Of a stretch of DNA of 64,000 bases, positions 6,101 to 50,317 are shown in pieces. The stretch's first letter is position 1. The number at the start of each line of letters is the position of its first letter. Source of the DNA: a virus; the IMG/VR virus record IMGVR_UViG_3300042295_000443, positions 1 through 64,000 of that record; one strand, given 5' to 3'. Made by a program: the position numbers and the translations under genes. A model generated the notes under the pieces. That model was not told the origin of the DNA and made no database searches. It saw nothing but the letters and a program-made list of their open reading frames with translations.

Positions 6101-8682
6101 TGTAATGATGTAGTTAAAAGATCTGTTCCTAAAAAAGCATCTGATAAAGCTCCTCCTAAATTAAAATAACTATTATAAGCTGCATTATATGCAGATTTAA
6201 TTCCTACTACTGGCAAATTAAATGCAGTTGAACTACTACTATTAGTGGGTAGTCCACCAGTACTCTGACCAGCAGCAGGTGTCCAACCCCAAGCAACACC
6301 TGATTGATTAGTAAAGGAACCTCCTGGTTGATTGTATACTCTTTTTCCAATTAAACTTATTATAGCTTCTCCAATACCAACTAATACTGATATTAATACA
6401 GCTGCATTAGAAAGTAATTTAAATTTAGGATGAAGAGCTGGTTCAATAAATTGTTGTGAAGAAACTCCTTGTAAATAACCATATAACTTTATTTCTGTCA
6501 TTGACAAAAATGGAGATGTAAACATTGTATCAGGAGAATGAAATGTTATCATATCTGTTGGTACATTCTGAGGAATTACAACAGTATAATCATCAGGTTT
6601 TTTAGGTATTCTAATGTATGGATCATTAAACTGATAGTTATTATCTAATGTATTAAGATTATTCATTGGAGATTGAATACAGTTAAAGGGATAGTTAGGA
6701 TATAATCCTATTCTGCCTCTAGCTACTGTTCCTTTAATTTTATAAGTTCTAAGATTATTAACCATTCCTTTGGCAATAATACTTTTATTTCCTTCCCTTG
6801 ATCCTCTTAAAATTTCAAATCCAACTATACCAGGTATATCTATACCATCATTATCTTTTGGAAGAATAATATTTTCAAATCTAACTCCTAACAATCTAAT
6901 CTTTAATCCTGTATTTGCATTTGAAACTGGATTAAAATGTACAGTGTCAATGTTTAAATAATTATCAGGAAATTTATGATGTCTAATTGGGAGTCCACAT
7001 AAATCATAAATATTAGATATTTGTGGTAAAGGACCTGTCCAACAATGAGCACTTGCATTCCAAATTTCTGGTTGGTTATCTGGATACTTTTCTGATGATT
7101 CCCAGTACCCCATATTTCCTGAAGCAATTATAACTCCTCCATCATCTGTAGTTGTTGGTATAAGTGCTGGTACTGGATAAGCATTAGCAGTATTATACAT
7201 TTCAAAAAACTGATCTGTAACATCTAAAGTGTTTAAATCATGAATAGTAGGAGTATTTGTTCTTTCAGGAACTATAGTATTGTTATAAAGATAGCTTCCT
7301 GAAGGTCTTCCCGGAATATGATATGAAGCAGATTTGTCTCCTGTATCATATACCCATCTTATAAAAAAACAATATACTTCATCTCTTAAATAACTTCCTT
7401 TATTTCCACCTTTAACATAATAGTCAGATGGATATTCTGTTGATACCCACTTAGTTCCAATTTGATTTGCCAAAGGTTGATAATTAAAATCAAACTTAGA
7501 TGTAGGACCTACCCTTAGTAAATAATTATTTACTTCAGTAATTTGATCAGACTTTTCAAAGATAGGAGTTTGCAATGGTAATAATCTAGTTGGTACTGTT
7601 ATAAGAGTATCAGGTATTTGATCTAACTCAACTACATTTGTATTTGTAGAGTATAAACCTATTTCTTTTGCAACAGTTCCCTGGTTAACATTTTGTACTA
7701 CTACTAATACAAATTCAGAAAAATTTGCTGAGTCAGCTGAAATATTAATTTGTAAAGATCCTTGTAAATCATTTGGATGCCATATTGGTTGTGTATTACT
7801 AGGAGAGAAATAATCTGTTACTCTTTGTCCTTTAATTGTATAAGCTATTAATGCAAAGTATGTTCCATTTCTTAATGTTCCTCCGGATGCTCCTAAATTA
7901 ACACTAACACAAGGTGTTTCCATTAATCTTGCTAATCTACTTTTAGGACAATCTAATGAATTTATATCAGTACATGTAATACAGGCATTTAAAGTTGGAC
8001 AGTTAGGTGGCCATACTCCAGGAGATGTTTGTACACATCCTGCATTATCATCACATATTTGTTCCCATTGTACTCCAGGCCAAAGTATTTGATTAGTACC
8101 ATCTGTATAATAATTAACAGTTGCTGGATTTGCAAGGGGAGTTCCTAACCAACTAAAAGTTGTAGGATTTGGCCAAGTTTGTGGATCTCCTACATTAAGA
8201 AATCTATCAGGATTTAAACCATCAGCCCAGTATATTTGATATGAGCAATCTTCTTTTTCTCTTGATGATCCAGAAATTAAAAATCTTTTATCAAAACCTA
8301 AACAAGCATCTTGAACAATAGGTCTATATCTACAGATGTCTTCTTCTAATAAACCTATCTCAGACATAACAGGAACTCCTAATGAATTATGTCCAGCAGT
8401 AAATATTATCCAATTGCTTGAAAATAAATGTATTACTCCTATAATATATTTATTTTGAGCTCCATTAAGTCCTGCATTAGGCATTGTTAAACCAGCAGTA
8501 GCACATAAATAATTTGAACTTTCATTTGATAATGTTCCTAACTGACCTTCTTCATTATTATTTACAGCATTGCGGGCATGTGTCCACATTCCTTCTCCAA
8601 CAAAAGATGCATCACTATCTTTATTAAGTCCTTTATTAAAACTTCTTGAAACATTTTCAGTTGTACTCTGTATTTTTGCCAT
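3148..8682 (-). CDS. Tail stabilisation / muzzle protein (crAss-like)
   Basis: 1844 aa, beta-rich. N-terminal FNKGLNKD...WTHARNA and C-terminal WISFHDWHP segments, plus position after the ring proteins, fit the Crassvirales tail stabilisation protein. Confidence 0.65.
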   Translation of the reverse strand: MAKIQSTTENVSRSFNKGLNKDSDASFVGEGMWTHARNAVNNNEEGQLGTLSNESSNYLCATAGLTMPNAGLNGAQNKYIIGVIHLFSSNWIIFTAGHNSLGVPVMSEIGLLEEDICRYRPIVQDACLGFDKRFLISGSSREKEDCSYQIYWADGLNPDRFLNVGDPQTWPNPTTFSWLGTPLANPATVNYYTDGTNQILWPGVQWEQICDDNAGCVQTSPGVWPPNCPTLNACITCTDINSLDCPKSRLARLMETPCVSVNLGASGGTLRNGTYFALIAYTIKGQRVTDYFSPSNTQPIWHPNDLQGSLQINISADSANFSEFVLVVVQNVNQGTVAKEIGLYSTNTNVVELDQIPDTLITVPTRLLPLQTPIFEKSDQITEVNNYLLRVGPTSKFDFNYQPLANQIGTKWVSTEYPSDYYVKGGNKGSYLRDEVYCFFIRWVYDTGDKSASYHIPGRPSGSYLYNNTIVPERTNTPTIHDLNTLDVTDQFFEMYNTANAYPVPALIPTTTDDGGVIIASGNMGYWESSEKYPDNQPEIWNASAHCWTGPLPQISNIYDLCGLPIRHHKFPDNYLNIDTVHFNPVSNANTGLKIRLLGVRFENIILPKDNDGIDIPGIVGFEILRGSREGNKSIIAKGMVNNLRTYKIKGTVARGRIGLYPNYPFNCIQSPMNNLNTLDNNYQFNDPYIRIPKKPDDYTVVIPQNVPTDMITFHSPDTMFTSPFLSMTEIKLYGYLQGVSSQQFIEPALHPKFKLLSNAAVLISVLVGIGEAIISLIGKRVYNQPGGSFTNQSGVAWGWTPAAGQSTGGLPTNSSSSTAFNLPVVGIKSAYNAAYNSYFNLGGALSDAFLGTDLLTTSLQTFNNASANIGTYTSPTLDKELTWNDYIPGSIGTAFDILGGISKFLYYFSEGFDLALRVLYASIRYDQYALQQIGHGFYDDMIKPNVFGSVQRYKIEDSFYIRDNIQEVQQYNAIIPDPLGFPTTQSTAYSINNLKRSDTVVVRTKTGDYVNPLFPNGINIGPAYITNAAGQYVDQSLVTLGYFENNQAVNNGWNWSTVGSPNFDNPSVPFGLSIASYYAALKIRLRNQYGQLQSIKQIAITPCEQKLSNYTVAPVGPYNCATDPGVQYFVNLIQFTPTFFGGDTFVNRYTEKNSMFFFYDWLFGQPDGFEYNYLLHQMVPEPRFWVNSKAYDSTDFAPNFSTFTPGTGNVPTDFYNLDNKRYQYADDSLSALGYPGVFRVKESFFYLAVSSVRDFFVESDVLVDFRIAGITEAEKFYDPYSYTDLNAMFNMDPQIIARGNDYRYDYSLSISKAFSQYFSAGNLQSRNYDPFVAQLCYTYYPDRLYYSLPQQNESFKDSWFVYLPNNYNEFKSQISGVKSINKSGLFITFKNASPLMYQGVDVLQTDLATKITIGDGGLFSQPGQSVTNADVPYEYGSSQNRLSVLSTPGGLFYISQNQGKIFSYSGGLKEISQSGLKWWFNLFLPYNLTIDFPTYPYLDNPVAGIGCQTLYDNENSIIFFSKKDYKLLDKWKVPGGQSVIYVPLNRKGTGDYFQIQNPTQPNGSPGAILPGTYLLGNSLLFEDASWTISFDPKNDFWISFHDWHPDLIIPNKGKFITTKNNAIWKHNDTCNSFCNFYDQNYPFEIEFPIITGQTVTTIKSIEYILECYRISKINCVDQHHVLDFNFDNAIIFNSEQASGYLNLNLFPKNNVTLSLDYPKLNANQNSFDILFSKEENKYRFNQFWDITKDRGEFPIGSDYPPTGPVIPGSTILNGNYDSQNIWETSSNGYTKILNPLNLDYNKSQTQRKKFRHYLNFLNLKKDISGDINMVVKIVNSKNQTSQR

Positions 8683-8684
8683 AA

Positions 8685-9701
8685 CTATACTAATCTATTT
8701 CTGCCAATAGGACCATAACTACTAAACATATCATAATACCTACCATACATTGCTCTTCTATTTGCTGCCCATACATTTTGTAATTCTCTAAAGTTTGGAG
8801 TATTAACTACATTAAGTGCAGCATTTCTTGCTACTCTTAATTGTGATTGTATATATTGCATTTTTTGTGCAACATCTTCTCCATTCATATATAAATTTTC
8901 AAGAATTCTAGCTTTAAATGCATATTCATAATATTCATTTATAAGATCATGATCTGGAACTAATAAATTTCCATTGTCATCTTCCATTGCTCCTTGATAA
9001 TTTAAATAAACTTTTGCTGTATCTAATGTAGTAAATAAAAAACCTCCTTTAATCCATCCTTCATTTGCTGAATTAACATATAAGTTAGGACAGTCACATT
9101 CTATTTCTTGACTTGCTCTCATTCTTAAAGGAACAACAGAATTATATGTTCTAGTTTGTCCACCTGTTACAACTTGTATAAGTTCATATTTGTCTCCCTT
9201 ACAGTTCATAAAAACTCTTGGAGGTATACAAGTATCACCATAAGGGTTTAAAGGATCATAAGCTACTGGAATTGGATCTACTATAGGAAAATTAAGATCA
9301 CAGCCTGCAGTATGATTACAAGGATTAGAATTACATGTTCTACAGTTAACTGTAATTGGAGAACATACATCTACTGTAGAGGGAACTTCTACATAAGGAA
9401 CTTCTTGAATATTTGTTCCTCCCATATCATATCCTGTATTTACAGTATAAGAACCACAAAGCATTGCATAGTTAAATACATAAAAGTCATCTGGTAATTT
9501 TACCTTACCATGACATACTTCTAATATAACTTCTTTAGTTTGATTAATTCTTAAACCAAGATCATAATTTAACTTCTTAGCTAATTTAATTAATTGCTGA
9601 GGCTCTATCATATTTTCAAGAGCAAAAGTGTTAAAATCTACAGATACATCTTCTAAGAGTTGATTAAAAGATCTATACCTAAGTGTGTAGTTAAAATCCA
9701 T
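8685..9701 (-). CDS. Tail ring / tubular protein with Cys-rich insertion
   Basis: 338 aa. KVKLPDDF and VYLNYQG..EDDNGNLLVPD motifs resemble crAss-like ring proteins; synteny agrees. Confidence 0.5.
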   Translation of the reverse strand: MDFNYTLRYRSFNQLLEDVSVDFNTFALENMIEPQQLIKLAKKLNYDLGLRINQTKEVILEVCHGKVKLPDDFYVFNYAMLCGSYTVNTGYDMGGTNIQEVPYVEVPSTVDVCSPITVNCRTCNSNPCNHTAGCDLNFPIVDPIPVAYDPLNPYGDTCIPPRVFMNCKGDKYELIQVVTGGQTRTYNSVVPLRMRASQEIECDCPNLYVNSANEGWIKGGFLFTTLDTAKVYLNYQGAMEDDNGNLLVPDHDLINEYYEYAFKARILENLYMNGEDVAQKMQYIQSQLRVARNAALNVVNTPNFRELQNVWAANRRAMYGRYYDMFSSYGPIGRNRLV

Positions 9702-10952: not shown

Positions 10953-10965
10953 TAATATACTAAAA
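10953..10965 (-). promoter_or_regulatory. Late promoter motif TTTTAGTATATTA
   Basis: One of about 10 GTATATTA copies lying just upstream of minus-strand starts. Confidence 0.6.
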
Positions 10966-42492: not shown

Positions 42493-43125
42493 TTATTCGT
42501 TATCATAAAACATTCTTTCTGAATCTTCTGTTTGCCACTTTTCAAATCCTTCGCAGTTATACCATTCATTACATACTAAGTAATCTGGTTTCTCTGGGAA
42601 AGCTTTAGTTACAAATGAAGGTTCAGACCATTTAATTCTGTTGTTAGGTTGTAAAGCTATCTGACCATTCTCAAGTAAAATGATATGATGACTTTTATGT
42701 TCTTTAGGATCTTCAGCTAATGTAAGATCTGTGTTAAGATCATTTGATCCCCAGTTAATAGTTCCATGGTAATTACCTTTGTAAAATTTATGGTCTTTCA
42801 TATATACTTCTACAGGAGTATCATAGAGGTAAGACAAACTCATAACAGTAAAGTTATAAGAGAAGCAATTCCATAACTGTAAAAAATGAAATGGTAGATC
42901 TGGATCTGGTGTCTCTGGTTCAGTCAATAAAGCATGACTTGGTAACTTATCTCTAAGAGCTCCATTCTCTAAAAGTACCTGGAATAATGCTGCTTGCCCC
43001 GGCATACATCTTACTGATACTATTATCCCTGGAGTAAACTCTCCTTGACCTTTAGTGTGTTGGTACATGTATTCATTTCTTACAAATACTTTAAGAGGAA
43101 AGAAGTTATGTTCTATGTGTGCCAT
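42493..43125 (-). CDS. Conserved hypothetical phage protein
   Basis: Likely start MAHIEHN at 43125, with a TACATTTG -7 element upstream; HKSHHII...ALQPNNRI motif. Confidence 0.6.
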   Translation of the reverse strand: MAHIEHNFFPLKVFVRNEYMYQHTKGQGEFTPGIIVSVRCMPGQAALFQVLLENGALRDKLPSHALLTEPETPDPDLPFHFLQLWNCFSYNFTVMSLSYLYDTPVEVYMKDHKFYKGNYHGTINWGSNDLNTDLTLAEDPKEHKSHHIILLENGQIALQPNNRIKWSEPSFVTKAFPEKPDYLVCNEWYNCEGFEKWQTEDSERMFYDNE

Positions 43126-43625
43126 AATAAATAAGTTTGTCACAAATGTATAAATATTTATAATACTATAAAGCATAATATAGTTTACAAAACTATACTA
43201 TTTTGTAACTTATATGTTACATTATGCATGCATATTCTGGAAAAATTCATGCAGGTTATATACTTATAGTGGAAAATTCCCATCACTAAAACGGTTATAA
43301 TCCTGTTATGGTGGAAAATTCTTACACAAAGTTATATGGTTTTTTAGTATGTGAGATGTAGAGGTTGGGTGCTATGATACAACCCCCCGCCAAATCCTGT
43401 GGAGGTGGTACCCCCCACCAACTTGAGGAGTGTGTCATAAATTCTAGGAAATATTTTAGAAAAAAATCCTGCTGGGAAAGAAACCTAGCTGCTACAACAG
43501 GAGAGGAGAGACAAGAGGTGACATGCTATGTCTACTACATGTACTATGCTAGTGATGTGCTAGCAAGAGGAGGGAGGCAGGGTGCTATATAATAGGGGTG
43601 TGTACTATATGTATAATATAGTATA

Positions 43626-43660
43626 GCCTTCGGCAGATTATATAACAGCTTATAACTACT
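43626..43660 (+). promoter_or_regulatory. Early hairpin-promoter repeat 1
   Basis: GCCTTCGGCAG-N7-AACAGCTT-ATA-ACTACT. Confidence 0.7.
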
Positions 43661-43684
43661 ATGGAACCAACTAAACTTTGTATC

Positions 43685-43753
43685 ATGATTGTATATGCTG
43701 TAATAAACGGAGTAGTTACTGTTAAGGAATGGGTGTTAAATCCTAATGCTTAA
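43685..43753 (+). CDS. 22-aa peptide MIVYAVINGVVTVKEWVLNPNA (30 aa if ATG 43661 is used)
   Basis: Lies between repeat 1 and a hairpin at 43759-43781. Leader AACCAACTAAACT is shared with the ORF at 47265. Confidence 0.45.
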   Translation: MIVYAVINGVVTVKEWVLNPNA

Positions 43754-43793
43754 TGTTTGAGGGAGCTGTAATAGCTCTCTTAACTATGCTTAA

Positions 43794-43828
43794 GCCTTCG
43801 GCAGATGGTACTACAGCTTATAACTGCT
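43794..43828 (+). promoter_or_regulatory. Early hairpin-promoter repeat 2
   Basis: GCCTTCGGCAG-N7-TACAGCTT-ATA-ACTGCT. Confidence 0.7.
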
Positions 43829-43869
43829 AAGGATATATTATATTTATTAACCATCTAAAACTTAAAAAG

Positions 43870-44136
43870 ATGAGCAATGTTAAAGGATTCTTAATCAGTG
43901 TAAGTGACACTGTAAAAACAAACACTAATGGAACTGAATTCAGATCTTGCATAGTAGCCATTGAGGGTGAAAACTATTTTGCAAAAATCTGGGAGAAATC
44001 TGTTTCCAAAGCTGTTGTTGGCAATGAGTACACTGTTGAAATGATTGTTGATGGTGAAAACTTATGGTTAACATTGTTAACTGGTGTTACTGCAACTATT
44101 GCAACACCTAATATGCTTGCACACCTACTTAAATAA
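43870..44136 (+). CDS. Small OB-fold-like protein, paralogue A
   Basis: Five-strand pattern; near-identical motifs to 44967..45242. Confidence 0.6.
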   Translation: MSNVKGFLISVSDTVKTNTNGTEFRSCIVAIEGENYFAKIWEKSVSKAVVGNEYTVEMIVDGENLWLTLLTGVTATIATPNMLAHLLK

Positions 44137-44143
44137 TAGGTAG

Positions 44144-44174
44144 AAGATGACACCCTTAATTGGGTGTTATCTTT
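44144..44174 (+). terminator. Terminator hairpin
   Basis: AAGATGACACCC-ttaatt-GGGTGTTATCTTT. Confidence 0.65.
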
Positions 44175-44182
44175 ATAGTTAA

Positions 44183-44217
44183 GCCTTCGGCAGGAAATGC
44201 TACAACTTAAAACTACT
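44183..44217 (+). promoter_or_regulatory. Early hairpin-promoter repeat 3
   Basis: GCCTTCGGCAG-N7-TACAACTT-AAA-ACTACT. Confidence 0.7.
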
Positions 44218-44250
44218 CATAGTATTAATGTTAAATTTAAACTATATATC

Positions 44251-44454
44251 ATGGACACAACAACTGTATTACAAATTATTGCTATGCTTGAAGGTGATGC
44301 AAAATCATACATTAAACACCTTGATAATACTAATGACCCTTTTGAAACAGGGTACATTAAAGGTTATCATGATGCTTTAACAAAGCATGCCCACATGCTG
44401 CAAGAGTATATTGAACTGCAAGTAAATTATGCAGAGAATGCATTAGGGGAGTAA
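44251..44454 (+). CDS. Small helical early protein
   Basis: Likely start MDTTTV at 44251, downstream of repeat 3. Confidence 0.6.
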   Translation: MDTTTVLQIIAMLEGDAKSYIKHLDNTNDPFETGYIKGYHDALTKHAHMLQEYIELQVNYAENALGE

Positions 44455-44465
44455 TCCCCTTTTTT
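44446..44465 (+). terminator. Terminator GGGGA-GTAA-TCCCC-U tract
   Basis: Perfect stem with GNRA loop and T run; identical hairpin at 46129. Confidence 0.75.
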
Positions 44466-44491
44466 AAACTGTAATCCCTAAATTAAAATAT

Positions 44492-44596
44492 ATGTTAATA
44501 GTTATTGGAAATGTAATGTTTGTTGCTATAATAGTGTTTATTGCCCGTTGTGGCTACAAGCTAGAAAAGGCTGATGAAGAAAAGGAAAGGGCTTAG
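44492..44596 (+). CDS. 34-aa single-TM peptide
   Basis: MLIVIGNVMFVAIIVFIARCGYKLEKADEEKERA, followed by a hairpin plus T run (44577-44611). Confidence 0.45.
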   Translation: MLIVIGNVMFVAIIVFIARCGYKLEKADEEKERA

Positions 44597-44672
44597 GCTC
44601 TTTCTTTTTTTGCTCAATCATTCATTCTTATGGAGTGGCTTGCGCCACACCTTTTATGTCTTTCTTTCAATG

Positions 44673-44707
44673 GCCTTCGGCAGGAGTCTCTACAGCTTAG
44701 GACTTCT
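44673..44707 (+). promoter_or_regulatory. Early hairpin-promoter repeat 4
   Basis: GCCTTCGGCAG-N7-TACAGCTT-AGG-ACTTCT. Confidence 0.7.
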
Positions 44708-44811
44708 GTGGAGTGTGCCTTTGCCTATGAGGATAAGATGTTACACACTTATAAAGTTCTCTCTGAAAAAGAACTTGGACAACTACATAGTAATATGTGG
44801 TTGTTTTTTTT
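44708..44811 (+). ncRNA. Candidate small RNA of about 100 nt
   Basis: Between repeat 4 and a terminator; stems AGTGTG/CACACT and AAGTTCT/AGAACTT; no credible complete ORF. Confidence 0.4.
44780..44811 (+). terminator. Intrinsic terminator
   Basis: CAACTACATA-GTAA-TATGTGGTTG followed by a T run. Confidence 0.75.
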
Positions 44812-44877
44812 GGTAGTTCAATGCTTGGCAGCTGCATAGTAAGTACTGTGTAGCAAAACTAATTTATTCTAGATTGG

Positions 44878-44912
44878 GCCTCCGGCAGGTGCCTTTACAG
44901 CTTTCTACTGCT
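44878..44912 (+). promoter_or_regulatory. Early hairpin-promoter repeat 5
   Basis: GCCTCCGGCAG-N7-TACAGCTT-TCT-ACTGCT. Confidence 0.7.
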
Positions 44913-44966
44913 GTGGATATAAGATTGTGAGAAAGCCTCACAACAAAACCAACCCCTATTTGCAAA

Positions 44967-45242
44967 ATGGAGAAAATGTTAAGAGGTACTCTTATCAGTT
45001 TTTCTAATGAGGCAAAAGCCAATGTGAATGGTACTCAGTACCGTTCTTGCATTGTCAATATTGGAGGTGAAAATTACTTTGCAAAGCTTTGGGAGAAATC
45101 CTTGGCTAAGGCAGTAATTGGAACTGAGTACAATATTGAGGCTGTAGTAGATGGTGATAACTTGTGGTTAACGTGCCTTACGGGCGTTAGTGCAACTATT
45201 GCTACTCCTGCTACATTCGCTGCTTTGTTAGCAGAATTGTAG
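44967..45242 (+). CDS. Small OB-fold-like protein, paralogue B
   Basis: NGTQYRSCIV..GGENYFAKLWEKS..KAVIG.EY....VDGDNLWLT.LTGV.ATIATP shared with 43870..44136. Confidence 0.6.
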   Translation: MEKMLRGTLISFSNEAKANVNGTQYRSCIVNIGGENYFAKLWEKSLAKAVIGTEYNIEAVVDGDNLWLTCLTGVSATIATPATFAALLAEL

Positions 45243-45306
45243 GAAGTATCCTAGACTGAGTAAGACTCGGAGTGTACCACTACTTGGCAACAGAAGTGGA
45301 AAATAT

Positions 45307-45346
45307 TAATGAACTACATAGAAATATGTGGTTCATTACTTTTTTT
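45307..45346 (+). terminator. Intrinsic terminator
   Basis: AATGAACTACATA-GAAA-TATGTGGTTCATT then T run; paralogue of the 44780 terminator. Confidence 0.7.
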
Positions 45347-45351
45347 AAACA

Positions 45352-45378
45352 GCCTTTGGCAGAAAGAGTATACAAAAT
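45352..45378 (+). promoter_or_regulatory. Degenerate promoter repeat 6
   Basis: GCCTTTGGCAG-N8-TACAAAAT; both the loop and the downstream box are mutated. Confidence 0.4.
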
Positions 45379-45450
45379 AAAAGATAATATTTGCCTTGGC
45401 AAGTACTAATAGGTACTGTGTAGCAAATAGTCTATATATATACTTAACCG

Positions 45451-45486
45451 GCCTCCGGCAGGTGGGGCGTACAGCTTTCAACTTCT
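45451..45486 (+). promoter_or_regulatory. Early hairpin-promoter repeat 7
   Basis: GCCTCCGGCAG-N8-TACAGCTT-TCA-ACTTCT. Confidence 0.7.
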
Positions 45487-45841
45487 TTGAGTGTGGTTAG
45501 GCCACGGTCATCTAGACCTACTAACCACCTATGTAACTATTAAAACTAGATTATTATAACAAAGTCTCCAGCCTGTGCAACAATGTGACTTTGGTACTGA
45601 TAATCAGGTAGTTATAAAATGAGATATGTGAGAAAAAGAGGAAGAATGAGATTAACTATTAACCTATCCAAGAATTTATAGGCAGAAATAGTCAGCAGAA
45701 ATGGTCTTAAAGCCTAATATTATATAGTATATAGCTAAAACAGACTTAGTATATACATTAAGAATAGTATTATCTCTTTCTATAGTTAGAGTAACATAAT
45801 AACTTATTCCGGAATTAAATAAATTTAAAACTATATATACT

Positions 45842-46138
45842 ATGAAAGATTTCATTCACACAGGTTGGTGGGGACCTACATTAACTACCACTGAAGATCC
45901 TGAATTAAAAGTTATTGAAAGAGATAATGGTCATTCTTGGACTATGAACTTTTATGTTGGTCATCATTTAATTGATTGCATAAATATGGAATGGTGCCGT
46001 GGTACTAAACTAGACAAAGATGTTCTTAGACTTCCTGTGTATAGTGATGAAGGTATCTACTTAGGTAGTCTTGCTAAAAGATTAGAAGATGCAATTAATG
46101 TTATGCATCCAGAACCTATGTTTCATACAGGGGAGTAA
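45842..46138 (+). CDS. Hypothetical early protein
   Basis: ORF track; A/T-rich leader. Confidence 0.6.
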   Translation: MKDFIHTGWWGPTLTTTEDPELKVIERDNGHSWTMNFYVGHHLIDCINMEWCRGTKLDKDVLRLPVYSDEGIYLGSLAKRLEDAINVMHPEPMFHTGE

Positions 46139-46147
46139 TCCCCTTTT
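46129..46147 (+). terminator. Terminator GGGGA-GTAA-TCCCC-TTTT
   Basis: Identical to the 44446 hairpin. Confidence 0.7.
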
Positions 46148-46154
46148 ATTTAGT

Positions 46155-47065
46155 ATTGTTGCCTTTTCTTTAACCAGGCAAGTATCCAGTAAGTTGCTGG
46201 CGTGGGACTGTCCAGTATAGTTACAAGACAGTAGGGTTTGGTCTATTTCCCTTAAAGACCATTAAGTACACAATGTTGTTACCCTCAGAGTTTAGATACT
46301 CATGGTGTGTGCGTTAAACCTATTATAACGGTTACTAAAACAACAGGTCAGCTCTCGTGACCAAAGGATAAACCAGTAATGGTATAAAGTGATATGTTGG
46401 TAACATATTGCGCAGGAGTAATCCTGTCTACAGAAGAGTATTGTAACTACCTACATTTTGGTGTGCTTGTGGCCTAACGGTTGATGCATAGAGATGTAGA
46501 CTTTCTAACAGGTAGGAAGTTGAGACAGAAATGTCAATAGAAAGTGCAATAGGTAACAATAGTACATCTCGCCAAGATGGAAGTTGTTATTAGTGAGATG
46601 TTCTTTATGCTACTAGAAATAGTGTGTATTTACATCAAACAGTGAGTAAGCTTGGCCGCTTAAAGCAATGTGAAGTTATAACTAAGGTACTCAAAAGGTA
46701 TTATGTTATATAAAGTTGGAACTACTTCACATTATTTCCTGAACCGCATTTAAACTAAAAACTTAAAAGCAAAGAATGTTCTAGCACTTATTAGTGAAAA
46801 TGCTCTTATCCTACTGCAATATGTAGGTACAGAAGACCCGCAAGGTTTATGTAAAGGGACTGATTAATATCTTAACTAGCAGTAGACATACTGTGTATCC
46901 CGTAAGGAAGTTGGTATGAAAGGAAACTTATTGCACTAATATGTAAAAGTATGATGATACTATAAATCATTGAGCATGTTGTTTACTTATAGAAATATAA
47001 GTGTGTATGAGGAGAAGAAATTTTCCAAAAATAGCAACATGAAAGGTCAATACTCATCCTTTCAA
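46155..47065 (+). ncRNA. Giant structured non-coding RNA (GOLLD/ROOL size class)
   Basis: About 900 nt without an ORF in the track. Many stems with GNRA loops and G-U pairs on the + strand. Long-range helices 46363-46369/47056-47062 and 46436-46443/47048-47055. Confidence 0.7.
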
Positions 47066-47238
47066 TAGTAATGCACCATTTCTACTTCACAAGGGTAGAC
47101 AGTTGTAATGTATGAACGCAACACTACTAGATTTTATCACTAGAAAGATGTTACATAGGGTTTTAATTAAAGAAGACTGATAATCTTTTTTATAACCTGC
47201 CGGAAACTTACATTATAACTGAGTGCAGAGTGATATTA
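47063..47238 (+). ncRNA. Twister-like self-cleaving ribozyme 1 (P1 type, long P5 insert)
   Basis: UAA-UGC-A-CC ... P4 UCUAC/GUAGA with loop UUCACAAGG ... 13-bp P5 ... GCA-GA-GUGA. Pseudoknots UCAC/GUGA and CC/GG. Confidence 0.65.
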
Positions 47239-47264
47239 AATAGTAACCAACTAAACTATAATAT

Positions 47265-47417
47265 ATGATTTTTCAATTGATTGCTCAAATTATTAAAGAT
47301 GCTGATAAAGTATCAAACAAGAAATTAGATAAAGCTGCTTATGCAGATTATCTCAATACTCTTTCTCTAGATGATCTACTATTCCTTAAGGATAGTTATA
47401 GTTCAGAGTTAGTATAG
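47265..47417 (+). CDS. 50-aa protein between the two ribozymes
   Basis: MIFQLIAQIIKDADKVSNKKLDKAAYADYLNTLSLDDLLFLKDSYSSELV; below ORF cutoff; A-rich leader. Confidence 0.55.
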   Translation: MIFQLIAQIIKDADKVSNKKLDKAAYADYLNTLSLDDLLFLKDSYSSELV

Positions 47418-47450
47418 TACTTATTCCTGCAAGATTAATTTCTTGTGGGA

Positions 47451-47577
47451 TTAGTAATACACCACTTCTCATTCCCAAGGTGAGACAGTTGTAATAGTAA
47501 GAGAGCAGGTTGCTTAGTCACACCTGCGGTAAATAATACTAAATCTTACACATTACAACTGAGTACAGAGGGATAAC
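47451..47577 (+). ncRNA. Twister-like ribozyme 2 (P2 mismatched, possibly attenuated)
   Basis: UAA-UAC-A-CC ... P4 UCUCA/UGAGA with loop UUCCCAAGG ... P5 CAGUUGUAAU/AUUACAACUG ... ACA-GA-GGGA. Pseudoknot UCCC/GGGA covaries with copy 1. Confidence 0.55.
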
Positions 47578-47693
47578 AAGGGTCATAACCTTGGGGCATA
47601 ACTAAGAGCTAGTAAGAAGACATAGAGTTCATTTTATTATGAAAGATACAACTCTTATTAGAACAACTCTTAGTTAATGCTTTATAAATATGT

Positions 47694-47933
47694 ATGAAAT
47701 ATATACAATTTATAATTGAAAGTAATTCTAATAAGAAATTAGATGCTTTCACTAAAGAATGTATTAATGCCATCAGAAGATCTGGTGCTGTTAAAGCTGG
47801 TCCAATACCTTTTAAAGGTAAAAGATTATTTTATTGTTACAGTCCTAATGGAAAGACTATTGATAGACTTATGTCATTAAAATGTCCTAAAGGTGTGTTA
47901 GTAACAATAAATTCTTTGGAAAATCCTCAATAA
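47694..47933 (+). CDS. Ribosomal protein S10 (uS10/NusE) homologue lacking the ribosome-binding loop
   Basis: SGAVKAGPIPF-KG-KRL...SPNGKTIDRLMSLKCPKGVLVTI aligns with S10 GA.V.GPIPL...(K/L)RL....PT.KTVDALM.L.L..GV.V.I. Confidence 0.75.
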   Translation: MKYIQFIIESNSNKKLDAFTKECINAIRRSGAVKAGPIPFKGKRLFYCYSPNGKTIDRLMSLKCPKGVLVTINSLENPQ

Positions 47934-48005
47934 AAGGGGTTAGTTAAAGCTGAAATAACTACAAAGCTTTGTTTTTAACTTAAAATTAAACTTAAAAATA
48001 TACTT

Positions 48006-48263
48006 ATGGATACTGTTTACTGGACTATGAAAAATGGTCAAAAGATAGATGTTGATACAATGGATATTCAACATCTAAGAAATACTCTTAAAATGCTTAT
48101 TAGAGCTAAGAGAGCACAATCTGTACCTAAATTTCAGGTACATGGAGAAATTGCTAGTGAATTTGCTGATATGGCTATGCTATATAGTATTTCACCTGAA
48201 TTAACTTGTCAATGTGATGAGGTACATGAATGTCAACAGTGTTATGAAGAATCTAAAAACTAA
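48006..48263 (+). CDS. Hypothetical protein with C-terminal CxC...CxxC
   Basis: ORF track. Confidence 0.55.
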   Translation: MDTVYWTMKNGQKIDVDTMDIQHLRNTLKMLIRAKRAQSVPKFQVHGEIASEFADMAMLYSISPELTCQCDEVHECQQCYEESKN

Positions 48264-48267
48264 AATT

Positions 48268-48378
48268 ATGGAAAAGATTGAAGTAACAATGCAAGAGATT
48301 TGGAAGGCTACTAAGCCTATTATCTATAAGAATAAGAAGAAATATTCTAGAAAAGATAAGCACAAAACTAGCAGGTGA
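48268..48378 (+). CDS. 36-aa basic peptide with KNKKKYSRKDKHK tail
   Basis: Below ORF cutoff; starts 4 nt after the previous stop; the stop codon lies inside hairpin AGCAGG-tgaaagt-CCTGCT. Confidence 0.55.
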   Translation: MEKIEVTMQEIWKATKPIIYKNKKKYSRKDKHKTSR

Positions 48379-48391
48379 AAGTCCTGCTTTT

Positions 48392-48733
48392 ATGATTACT
48401 AACTTAAAAATTAAACTTATGAATAGAAATTATCCCTTTGGTTATGGTGTGTTAGCCGGTCTACACACTGTTAAAATAAATGTTAACTTATTAGTTGCTG
48501 ATGCAAGTAAATTAGTAGACAAAAATGAACACTTAGCAATTTACTCTACAGGTAGAGGTGACAGAATAAGAGTAGAAGGTTTTATAACAGGAGCAAATTT
48601 TTCAAATTTTATTAAAGATTTGGAAATATATAAACTTGATTATAAAATAAATAAACTAATAGAAAGAAAAGTTCTTATATTAGATACTTCTATATCTACT
48701 GCAATAGCAGATCTTAATGATTTACCTTTTTAA
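48392..48733 (+). CDS. Hypothetical protein ending DLPF
   Basis: ORF track (start more likely MNRNY at 48419); SSB-like acidic DLPF tail. Confidence 0.5.
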   Translation: MITNLKIKLMNRNYPFGYGVLAGLHTVKINVNLLVADASKLVDKNEHLAIYSTGRGDRIRVEGFITGANFSNFIKDLEIYKLDYKINKLIERKVLILDTSISTAIADLNDLPF

Positions 48734-48760
48734 TTTAAACTTAAACTAAAACTTAAAATT

Positions 48761-48973
48761 ATGCAAAACTCAAATGAACTAAAAGTATTAATTTACAACT
48801 TAATGTTAAAAGAAGTCTTTAATGTTATCAGTGAAGACTGTAGAAAAGAAATAGAGAGACTTATTGATGAAAGATTAGAATACTACAAAACTATTGCTAT
48901 GTCTAATTCTATGGACATAGAAGAAATAAGAGCAAAATATAGTATTTACAATGACTTAAAAAACTTATTATGA
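48761..48973 (+). CDS. Hypothetical protein
   Basis: ORF track. Confidence 0.5.
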   Translation: MQNSNELKVLIYNLMLKEVFNVISEDCRKEIERLIDERLEYYKTIAMSNSMDIEEIRAKYSIYNDLKNLL

Positions 48974-49167
48974 TTATGGAAACTATGATTACAAAAATTA
49001 ATAAAGTCTCTATGGCTTTATTAGTAGCAATTGGAATGCAATACTTTATGGTAGGAGCACTTACTATGAGATTTATGGATTTTTCAGGATTTTCAGTAAT
49101 TAATTGGATATTAGAAATAATTTATCTATCTTTTACTATATCTCTTGCATTAAGAACTGATATATGA
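48970..49167 (+). CDS. Small two-TM membrane protein
   Basis: Hydrophobic helices; ATGA overlap. Confidence 0.5.
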   Translation: MIMETMITKINKVSMALLVAIGMQYFMVGALTMRFMDFSGFSVINWILEIIYLSFTISLALRTDI

Positions 49168-49358
49168 GAAATAAAAATGTTAGCTTAATCATTGCTAGTC
49201 TAGGATTAGCAATGATGGTTATCTGTATTTATGGATTATTTACAGCTACAACACAAAATGACCTAATGTTAGCACTGATAGGGTTTAATCTATCTGGAGT
49301 GCTTGCAGGTATAGCAATATGGGATTATGATTATTTAACTAAAAAAACAAAAATATGA
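49164..49358 (+). CDS. Small two-TM membrane protein
   Basis: Hydrophobic helices; ATGA overlap. Confidence 0.5.
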   Translation: MRNKNVSLIIASLGLAMMVICIYGLFTATTQNDLMLALIGFNLSGVLAGIAIWDYDYLTKKTKI

Positions 49359-49603
49359 AAACAATTAAAATTAATTTAATAGTAATTACATACTTTGTAA
49401 TTATATCAATTGTAGCTATAATAGCTACATCTTGTGGATCATCACATACAACATGTGATGCTTATAGCAATGTTAAATGGGAAAACTCAATAAACAATTC
49501 TGAAAATGGAGAGTTTGTAACAGAAGTTGCATTTAACCTTGGGATTGAAAACAATCAAGTTACTCAAGCTCAGTTTGATGAGCGGTATTCAGCAGGATAC
49601 TAA
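49355..49603 (+). CDS. Putative lipoprotein
   Basis: Signal peptide with lipobox IATS-C; CDAY motif. Confidence 0.5.
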   Translation: MKTIKINLIVITYFVIISIVAIIATSCGSSHTTCDAYSNVKWENSINNSENGEFVTEVAFNLGIENNQVTQAQFDERYSAGY

Positions 49604-49608
49604 TATAT

Positions 49609-49632
49609 GCCAGTGTAACAGCTGGCTTTTTT
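49609..49632 (+). terminator. Intrinsic terminator
   Basis: GCCAG-tgtaacag-CTGGC followed by a T run. Confidence 0.65.
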
Positions 49633-49651
49633 ATTAATTAAAAACTGTAAT

Positions 49652-50317
49652 ATGATATTTAGAAAATTAAGTAAATTATATGAACTTAGAACAAGATTAT
49701 ATACACTTCTTGAAAGAGCTAAGAATTCAGGAGCTGATCCTGATGTAATAACAATAAGAGTTAATGATTTAGAATATGATATTGCTAAAGTAAATAGCAA
49801 AATAGAATTTGAAAAAGTATTAAGACCCTTTATTTATATAATATGGATATTCTTAGGTATTGCTTTATTTATGTTATTTAGTTTTATGTATACTCCTAGA
49901 GTAACAAAAATATATTATAAAACAAAAGTTTCATCTACAATAACTAATGATTCATTATTTACTAAAGAAAAATTAATACTTTATGTTAACTCTTTAAACT
50001 TAAAATTTCCTCACATTATACTAGCACAAGCTCAATTAGAATCAGGTAATTTTACTTCACATATATTTAAAAGTAATAATAACTTTTTTGGTATGAAACA
50101 AGCTAGAAGTAGACCAACAACTTGTATTAGATTACAACACGGTCATGCTTACTATAATAATTGGAAAGATTGTGTAATTGATTATGCACTTTATCAAGCT
50201 GCATATTTAAAAAATATAAAAACTGAAGAACAATATTATAACTATATTGGACGTAATTATGCAGAGAATGCAAATTATGCTAAAATAGTAAAGAAAATTG
50301 CACAAAATTATAAATAG
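49652..50317 (+). CDS. Membrane-anchored GH73 glucosaminidase
   Basis: AQAQLESG, NNFFGMK and YAEN..Y motifs after a TM helix. Confidence 0.75.
   Translation: MIFRKLSKLYELRTRLYTLLERAKNSGADPDVITIRVNDLEYDIAKVNSKIEFEKVLRPFIYIIWIFLGIALFMLFSFMYTPRVTKIYYKTKVSSTITNDSLFTKEKLILYVNSLNLKFPHIILAQAQLESGNFTSHIFKSNNNFFGMKQARSRPTTCIRLQHGHAYYNNWKDCVIDYALYQAAYLKNIKTEEQYYNYIGRNYAENANYAKIVKKIAQNYK

Follow-up and report, generated by a model that had tools for sequence, protein, structure and literature searches.

Which signal opens the rightward gene module of a crAss-like phage, and which RNA polymerase (RNAP) would read it? This question is raised by a 1.9-kb array of short repeats in the phage record IMGVR_UViG_3300042295_000443, whose whole genome comprises 89,161 bp and whose positions 1-64,000 make up the window analysed here. 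Each of the six repeats joins a hairpin-type box to a conserved core. They are very probably phage-specific early promoters, and we lean towards a virion-packaged RNAP (vRNAP) of crAss type as the enzyme that reads them. That a hairpin on the template strand is functional is a more tentative part of the proposal, and we regard it as somewhat doubtful.

A repeat array at the divergent junction

The pattern GCCTYCGGC, searched with at most one mismatch, matched 9 times in the window against 1.2 expected, and this number was reached in none of 100 shuffles. Seven of the nine matches lie on the plus strand between 43626 and 45459. The extended pattern GCCTYCGGCAG-N6-9-ACARCTT was found in six copies in the whole 89,161-bp genome, all of them forward and all within the array, and its reversed-pattern control gave no match there. 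The pattern searches thus agree with the six repeats and the degenerate copy at 45352, all in one orientation, which a first-pass annotation had listed from the letters of the DNA. The six copies are in register across 41 nt and all belong to the class with a hairpin. Conservation extends downstream beyond the consensus proposed earlier, as far as ACT-NNT-N-TGGA; the wording of that consensus holds for most copies, but copy 1 (AACAGCTT) and copy 3 (TACAACTT) depart from it. The array lies at the divergent junction that opens the rightward module: minus-strand structural genes end at 43176 and the plus-strand block (helicase etc.) begins after the array. No match to the array region was obtained by blastn among 50,697 phage records. 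The promoters, the units that they head and the remnants between them are as follows.

43626..43665, plus strand: promoter of unit 1, with the hairpin box at 43626-43636, ACAGCTT at 43645-43651 and ACTACT at 43655-43660; a TAGTATAG-type element lies directly upstream, and the unit contains a doubtful 30-aa open reading frame (ORF)
43794..43833, plus strand: promoter of unit 2, with box GCC-TTC-GGC-AG, TACAGCTT and ACTGCT, upstream of the OB-fold gene p88
43870..44136, plus strand: p88, 88 aa, predicted OB-fold protein resembling single-stranded DNA-binding protein (SSB), followed by a terminator-like hairpin at 44150-44178
44183..44222, plus strand: promoter of unit 3, the TACAACTT variant, heading a 67-aa ORF (44251-44454; terminator at 44445-44466) and a 34-aa membrane-like ORF (44492-44596)
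44673..44712, plus strand: promoter of unit 4, heading an RNA of about 100 nt (44708-44815; three hairpins, z = -3.1), with a terminator at 44777-44814
44822-44831, plus strand: second degenerate box, TGCTTGGCAG, counterpart of the remnant at 45352
44878..44917, plus strand: promoter of unit 5, with box GCC-TCC-GGC, heading p91, the second OB-fold paralog (44967-45242), with a terminator at 45307-45345
45352..45362, plus strand: degenerate box, GCCTTTGGCAG, with a TTT loop and without the core
45451..45491, plus strand: promoter of unit 6, with an N8 spacer, followed by a leader of about 350 nt and a 98-aa ORF (45842-46138), with a terminator at 46129-46150

The units are closed by terminator-like sites, of which the region 43000-50000 contains 13 against 2.7 expected, 11 of them on the plus strand; the earlier description of the repeats as heads of mini-cassettes, most of them with a tiny gene or small RNA and a terminator, agrees with this arrangement. 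A module of about 150 nt between cassettes, composed of a terminator, a remnant box, GTACTGTGTAGCAAA, a full box and the core, is duplicated. Its two versions occupy 44770-44925 and 45300-45500 and contain the remnants at 44822 and 45352, respectively.

The conserved core in related phages

The viral collection was scanned in three ways, with the full pattern, with the downstream box alone and with the p88 protein family, and whole-record searches were added. This yielded about 20 related lake-phage contigs with 101 distinct copies of ACARCT-N4-ACT. In every large record the copies are gathered within about 2 kb at the same junction, all pointing the same way (for instance, 7737-9496 in relative G002 and 90396-91346 in G003; G009, G013 and G014 have 9-11 copies each), and a single array per genome was registered also in relatives that are 91-100% complete. 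The conserved heart of the repeats is the downstream box T-ACAGCTT-N3-ACT.

In 46 of the 101 copies the core stands without a hairpin box. There it lies 5-10 nt after the T-run of the previous terminator, and in 39 of the 46 an ATG follows at +28 to +42, so that no space is left for another promoter. Nothing speaks more strongly for the core as a promoter in its own right than this geometry. The hairpin had been proposed initially as the core recognition element, a role that it loses here: the downstream box is invariant and about half of some 100 related copies are hairpin-less. The two classes also differ downstream, GGA being present at +17 to +22 in 28 of 55 hairpin copies versus 5 of 46 hairpin-less ones, and the hairpin copies are mostly found upstream of the p88 gene or of non-coding units.

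In sister clades the architecture is retained, the hairpin before p88 included, but the core is a different one: ACTGTGT-NN-TACT in G012, CCAACTC-N3-ACT in G010 and TCAGCTC-N3-ACT in G015. The same architecture with different cores is the behaviour of promoters served by phage-encoded polymerases. In the vRNAP tree the whole of clade I and the larger part of clade II have ACAGCTT. Phages with ACTGTGT are nested in clade II, and those with CCAACTC or TCAGCTC belong to clade III; such a distribution fits vertical descent and does not tell which enzyme is the reader. Among 185,579 bacterial genomes the full motif appeared as three singletons in unrelated metagenome-assembled genomes, which is the chance level.

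Some elements around the promoters may be mentioned here. The GTACTGTGTAGCAAA sequence lies at 44837-44857 and 45407-45427 on the plus strand, upstream of units 5 and 6; it equals the first half of the G012 core (GTACTGTGT-NN-TACT) with TACT missing and perhaps represents what is left of a second type of promoter. At 43400-43435 on the plus strand a GGTGGTACCCCCC element is followed by CCAACTTGAG, and the core is degenerate there, like the G010-type core; contigs from the RNA libraries of two studies span 43326-43597. In relatives the same element, GGTACCCCCC, is situated 15 nt before the first promoter of the array.

The mini-hairpin

Within the 40 nt upstream, 54 of the 101 copies have a hairpin whose stem comprises at least 3 bp and whose triloop reads T-N-C; shuffles gave 3.5 on average and never more than 12. 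The three stem pairs of 55 distinct boxes make up 165 cells, of which 162 are paired, and compensatory changes are seen at all three pairs (G-C 45 and T-A 7; C-G 43 and G-C 12; C-G 53 and T-A 2). The covariation score is 0.42, whereas shuffles give 0.085 and slid controls do not exceed 0.19, but this set was selected by hairpin presence, so that its pairing and covariation count is biased. An unbiased set was therefore chosen by protein homology, as the promoter before each p88 orthologue. The hairpin was present in 23 of 23 distinct promoters of this set (22 by script and one by eye), at 12-17 nt before the core and with stems GCC/GGC, GTGC/GCAC, GGC/GCC or TGC/GCA. Several stems may coexist in one genome, GCC/GGC with GCT/AGC in G002 and GTGC/GCAC with GCC/GGC in G013 and G014, which favours pairing over base-specific reading by a protein. 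By these comparisons the mini-hairpin is real and is kept via compensatory changes. The search of relatives for covarying stems that had been recommended finds a hairpin before every p88 orthologue, but none in the 46 hairpin-less copies.

The loops are TTC, TGC, TAC, TCC and, in a minority, TTT, so that all four bases occur at the middle position. In 53 of the 55 boxes the top strand reads C-TNC-G and the template strand, consequently, c(GNA)g, in accordance with the template-strand GNA loop on a compensated stem that had been suggested at the outset. Only the middle base of this loop varies within the window, as was also claimed then. The stem has 3 bp in the window and 2-5 bp among relatives. 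Mini-hairpins of the d(GNA) type with C-G closure form a stable class (PMC3201870, PMC13037366), and GNA is the loop type of the promoters of phage N4 (PMC13037366, PMC4496689). An alternative folding, CTTCGG as an RNA tetraloop C(UNCG)G, was considered and rejected, since the variants GCT/AGC and GTGC/GCAC break the tetraloop and keep the triloop stem.

The products of p88 and p91 are paralogs, and their family stands behind a hairpin-class promoter in all relatives. An AlphaFold model of p88 (pLDDT 80) has OB-fold topology. Its best Foldseek matches in PDB are human SSB1, RPA, Sulfolobus SSB and PriB (E from 5e-4, TM 0.5-0.58), and an Atlas look-up gave weak leads (0.78-0.83) to families binding single-stranded DNA. 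Judging by the model, p88 is predicted to be an SSB-like OB-fold protein. In N4 the host SSB preserves the template-strand hairpin and melts the other strand (PMC4496689); by analogy, p88 might play a similar role.

Probable early promoters and the polymerase that may read them

A position-wise logo of the 101 copies contains neither -35/-10 elements nor the Bacteroidota -33 TTTG and -7 TAnnTTTG. Scanning of the array region for sigma-70 promoters gave background counts (40 vs 35), and no sigma-70 r2 or r4_2 domains (Pfam) were found in the lake phage or in five relatives at least 90% complete. A sigma-54 reading (GG...GC) was rejected, its offset being 16 instead of 12 and, moreover, variable. 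The Pfam search for a T7-type RNAP (PF00940) gave no match and its control also matched nowhere, which makes this search uninformative.

The phage is crAss-like and comes from lake water. Its major capsid protein matches crAss001 gp32 (PDB 7QOF), its portal and large terminase have matches in PHROGs, and the window sequence is present in lake-water metagenomes. The best candidate for a phage polymerase is a 2156-aa ORF outside the window, at 82390-88860, which bears GADFDIDK (the DFDID motif); this ORF and the capsid match agree with the original assumption of a crAss-type virion RNAP. The 2156-aa protein has weak tblastn matches to 83 crAss-like phage records and homologues with 50-88% identity in the relatives. 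Neither it nor the neighbouring 1844-aa giant protein had a match in PDB by phmmer, and for the 2156-aa protein PHROGs gave none. On the minus strand of 76484-88860 a separate 1958-aa ORF comes after the DFDID protein. Around the DFDID match, relatives G001-G003 have an open frame of about 3600-3650 aa, so that either the lake phage has a split gene or these relatives have a fused one.

The homologous enzyme of phage phi14:2 transcribes early genes, is resistant to rifampicin and accepts only single-stranded or denatured DNA (bioRxiv 10.1101/2020.03.07.982082). In the literature searched no published promoter of a crAss-type virion RNAP was found, and the sole study found reports no common motif.

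A second motif, the -10-like TTAGTATATT, occurs before structural genes (22 matches vs 9.9 expected) and is enriched also in G002, G003 and G012; probably, it represents the middle/late promoter class. Examples on the minus strand are found at 10954, 18053, 26097, 33784, 36607, 38059 and 42410, located 10-35 nt upstream of genes and oriented with them. The non-sigma layout of the core, this separate motif and the restriction of the array signal to the earliest units all favour the virion enzyme.

Based on these data one can propose the following scheme. The core of about 25 nt, T-ACAGCTT-N3-ACT-NNT-N-TGGA, would be the promoter and initiation region of this lake crAss-like clade, with the start most likely in or right after TGGA. 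An accessory upstream element would be formed by the 9-nt mini-hairpin and the AG behind it; this hairpin has C-G closure and a T-N-C loop, so that its template strand reads c(GNA)g. A short unit ended by an intrinsic terminator would follow each promoter, and the products of the units would be two SSB-like paralogs, tiny proteins and small RNAs. Among possible readers, the 2156-aa DFDID protein encoded at 82390-88860 would be the most likely, and the template-strand hairpin could perhaps be helped by the OB-fold protein. In its most elaborate form, which we consider unlikely, the virion RNAP would read the box on a single-stranded template, and the c(GNA)g hairpin, stabilised by the OB-fold SSB, would mark or hold open the strongest immediate-early promoters. 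If true, this would mean a mechanistic convergence with N4, where hairpin, SSB and injected RNAP also act together, on an unrelated polymerase fold.

Several observations weigh against this scheme. The assignment of the vRNAP is based on the DFDID motif, the size and the weak tblastn matches, and is therefore a putative one. The signal does not extend beyond the initial 2 kb of the rightward module, and downstream replication genes do not have it. The RNA data described below consist of contigs. As concerns the hairpin, it is absent from the 46 copies discussed above, and the compensatory changes trace to just a few lineages. In relatives TTT loops, which have no G on the template strand, precede intact cores, so that the proposed tie between the AAA loop and the loss of the downstream box is not general, and one lineage with a 4-nt loop counts against an N4-like mechanism. 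The distance from hairpin to core varies within 8-17 nt. Standard theory does not allow extrusion of stems of 2-5 bp from duplex DNA. Generic DNA parameters give -1.3 to -1.7 kcal/mol on either strand, with no strand difference and insignificant z-scores, but these nearest-neighbour parameters omit the GNA bonus, so that the energies neither support nor refute the hairpin. Finally, early transcripts of phi14:2 have no common upstream motif (bioRxiv 10.1101/2020.03.07.982082), and its early region (NC_021806, 1-9700) contains no comparable repeat array. The idea that the repeats are crAss virion RNAP promoters made of a hairpin plus a box is therefore retained in the part that concerns phage-specific, promoter-like signals heading the early module, and abandoned in the part that concerns N4-like geometry. 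With all this in mind, we still incline, on balance, to the view that the six repeats are early promoters read by the DFDID virion RNAP.

Expression and cassette turnover

Contigs from lake and freshwater metatranscriptomes were placed on 43300-47300; such contigs cannot give starts, ends or strand. Those of higher depth, obtained in two studies, represent the body of unit 5, from 44946 or 44956 to 45208 or 45289, and leave its promoter uncovered. Contigs of low depth span several cassettes.

The composition of the array is changeable. The near-identical contig L014 is devoid of cassette 4 (about 223-227 nt), and joints in RNA contigs (44222>44573, 44582>44806 and 44604>44805) correspond to variants without whole cassettes. 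The terminator-promoter modules, hence, also act as recombination points for the gain and loss of cassettes. The earlier suggestion that the repeats could drive cassette duplication and shuffling is supported by the loss in L014, the duplicated module, the paralogs and the cassette-skipping joints.

Alternative explanations

The repeats might be promoters of the host RNAP, used with an alternative sigma factor, an activator or an undetected phage factor, and the box might serve as a duplex site for a regulator without being folded. We consider this unlikely, yet it is the most probable of the alternatives. The units are closed by ordinary intrinsic terminators, half of the promoters do without the box, and the variable spacing between box and core would suit a separate factor site. 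The stem changes preserve dyad symmetry, which a dimeric protein can read, and the 67-aa protein of unit 3 has a weak DNA-binding match in PHROGs. The failure to obtain a vRNAP motif for phi14:2 (bioRxiv 10.1101/2020.03.07.982082) points in the same direction. Nevertheless, the core has no -35/-10, Bacteroidota -33/-7 or sigma-54 layout, the structural genes use a different, -10-like motif, and no sigma domain was detected in the six genomes; the coexistence of differing stems in G002, G013 and G014 argues for pairing, and the full motif stays at chance level in the bacterial genomes.

Two other explanations deprive the repeats of a promoter role. They might act at the RNA level, as processing sites or as nut-like antitermination signals (a boxB-like hairpin and a boxA-like box), possibly together with an S10/NusE-like protein. 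The order of hairpin and box does resemble rrn boxB-boxA, an S10-like ORF that lacks the loop (Pfam S10, 25.6 bits) is situated 2 kb downstream, the -10-like TAGTATAG or TATATAAA adjoins the first box here and in several relatives, and the low-depth RNA contigs cross several cassettes. However, a signal located 3' of every terminator cannot prevent that termination, and the higher-depth contigs are single cassette bodies. As RNA, a stem of 3 bp with a UNC loop is not particularly stable, and its C(UNCG)G reading is broken by the GCT/AGC and GTGC/GCAC stems. The similarity to boxA does not exceed 5 of 13 positions and the Rfam search gave no match inside the array, which also sets it apart from lambda nut and rrn boxA-boxB; we rate this explanation as highly improbable. 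Even less credible is the assumption that the repeats are mainly recombination or replication signals, that is, joints resembling the promoter-early stem-loops (PeSLs) of T4-type phages or ssi-type priming mini-hairpins near an origin. It can rely on the presence or absence of cassette 4 in near-identical genomes, the duplicated module and OB-fold gene, the location of the array at the strand-switch point, and the identity of template-strand CCGAAGG with the mini-hairpin of the RSF1010 ssiA priming site (PMC13037366). But an invariant core of 15-25 nt, oriented with the genes and kept at a fixed distance from the start codon, is what a promoter needs and a joint does not. Since the PeSLs of T4-type phages combine promoters with terminators (PMC2839356, PMC4122927), shuffling would be an added effect rather than an alternative.

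Comparison with known promoter systems

The promoters P1-P3 of N4, read by its virion RNAP gp50 (PMC4496689, PMC13037366), invite comparison with the array. Like the repeats, they precede the earliest genes, in a phage whose virion carries an RNAP of its own, as that of the lake phage presumably does. In both, the template strand has a 3-nt GNA loop (GAA or GGA) closed by C-G. The N4 enzyme uses only single-stranded or denatured templates in vitro, a property that can be ascribed to the lake-phage enzyme by homology to the phi14:2 gp66 type, and the involvement of SSB in N4 has a parallel in the SSB-like OB-fold gene under hairpin promoters here. The differences are the following. N4 possesses a T7-like single-subunit polymerase, whereas the only RNAP-like gene of the lake phage encodes a putative two-barrel DFDID enzyme. 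Stems of 5-7 bp, which can be extruded under supercoiling, are opposed to stems of 2-5 bp. In N4 the hairpin centred at -11 is the promoter itself, and conserved sequence is limited to -17..+1; in the lake phage a 25-nt box separates the hairpin from the start, the hairpin is about 30-35 nt upstream of the likely start, its spacing varies within 8-17 nt, and half of the promoters in the family have no hairpin at all. The label "N4-like" given to the array at first must therefore be dropped: the length of its stems, the position and spacing of its hairpins and the class of its enzyme all exclude it from the N4 hairpin-promoter family, with which it has only the template-strand GNA mini-hairpin in common.

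Promoters of the T7 group (T7, T3, SP6 and K11) consist of one block of about 20-25 nt without -35/-10 elements, in which the upstream specificity part varies and the start-proximal part is conserved. The core of the repeats has the same appearance, a single block of this length with an upstream part varying between related phages, but there is no T7-type RNAP here and the signal is confined to the first 2 kb. In T4-type phages PeSLs are repeated modules of terminator and early promoter that flank small variable ORFs and mark joints of indels and duplications (PMC2839356, PMC4122927), as the modules of the array do; they contain sigma-70 early promoters for the host RNAP, unlike the clade-specific non-sigma-70 core found here. 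The layout of phi14:2 is crAss-like, with the virion DFDID RNAP gp66 acting on early rightward genes and with abundant early non-coding RNAs from the same region (bioRxiv 10.1101/2020.03.07.982082), but it differs in the two respects named above, the absence of a common motif and of a repeat array.

crAss-like phages are among the most abundant phages known, and the window adds to them a large and well-sampled lake clade. The structure of the injected two-barrel RNAP has been solved, and no defined promoter for it was found in the searchable papers; the array is a testable candidate. The clade offers a sharp consensus in many copies and a candidate cofactor, along with natural variants that either bear or lack the hairpin and comprise four stems, four loop bases and three sister-clade cores. 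With this consensus and its variants, specific initiation by the recombinant enzyme in vitro can be directly tested on short oligonucleotides. The array also illustrates how terminator-promoter modules drive the turnover of tiny early genes.

Other features of the region

A/T-rich leaders such as TTAAAACTATAT precede the start codons of most ORFs without a Shine-Dalgarno sequence, as in phi14:2, which fits a Bacteroidota host. The plus-strand ORF at 47694-47933 (79 aa) corresponds to Pfam Ribosomal_S10 by its N-terminal part only (25.6 bits, cut-off 21.2) and would encode an S10/NusE-like protein of the phage, adjacent to the early region.

Downstream of the array, at 46284-47050 on the plus strand, a large non-coding RNA was recognised that matches Rfam GOLLD (RF02032) over the full model length with 88 bits (E = 2e-22), which is below the gathering score of 150. 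In coverage by lake metatranscriptome contigs it far exceeds all other parts of the region, with depth from 49 to about 1100 versus 8-38 for the cassettes. No promoter of the array type stands before it, and a TTAGTATTG element is located at about 46150. In RNA contigs of one run 46203 or 46259 is joined straight to 47069, so that the whole giant RNA is omitted; this could reflect a DNA variant without the RNA gene or an event at the RNA level.

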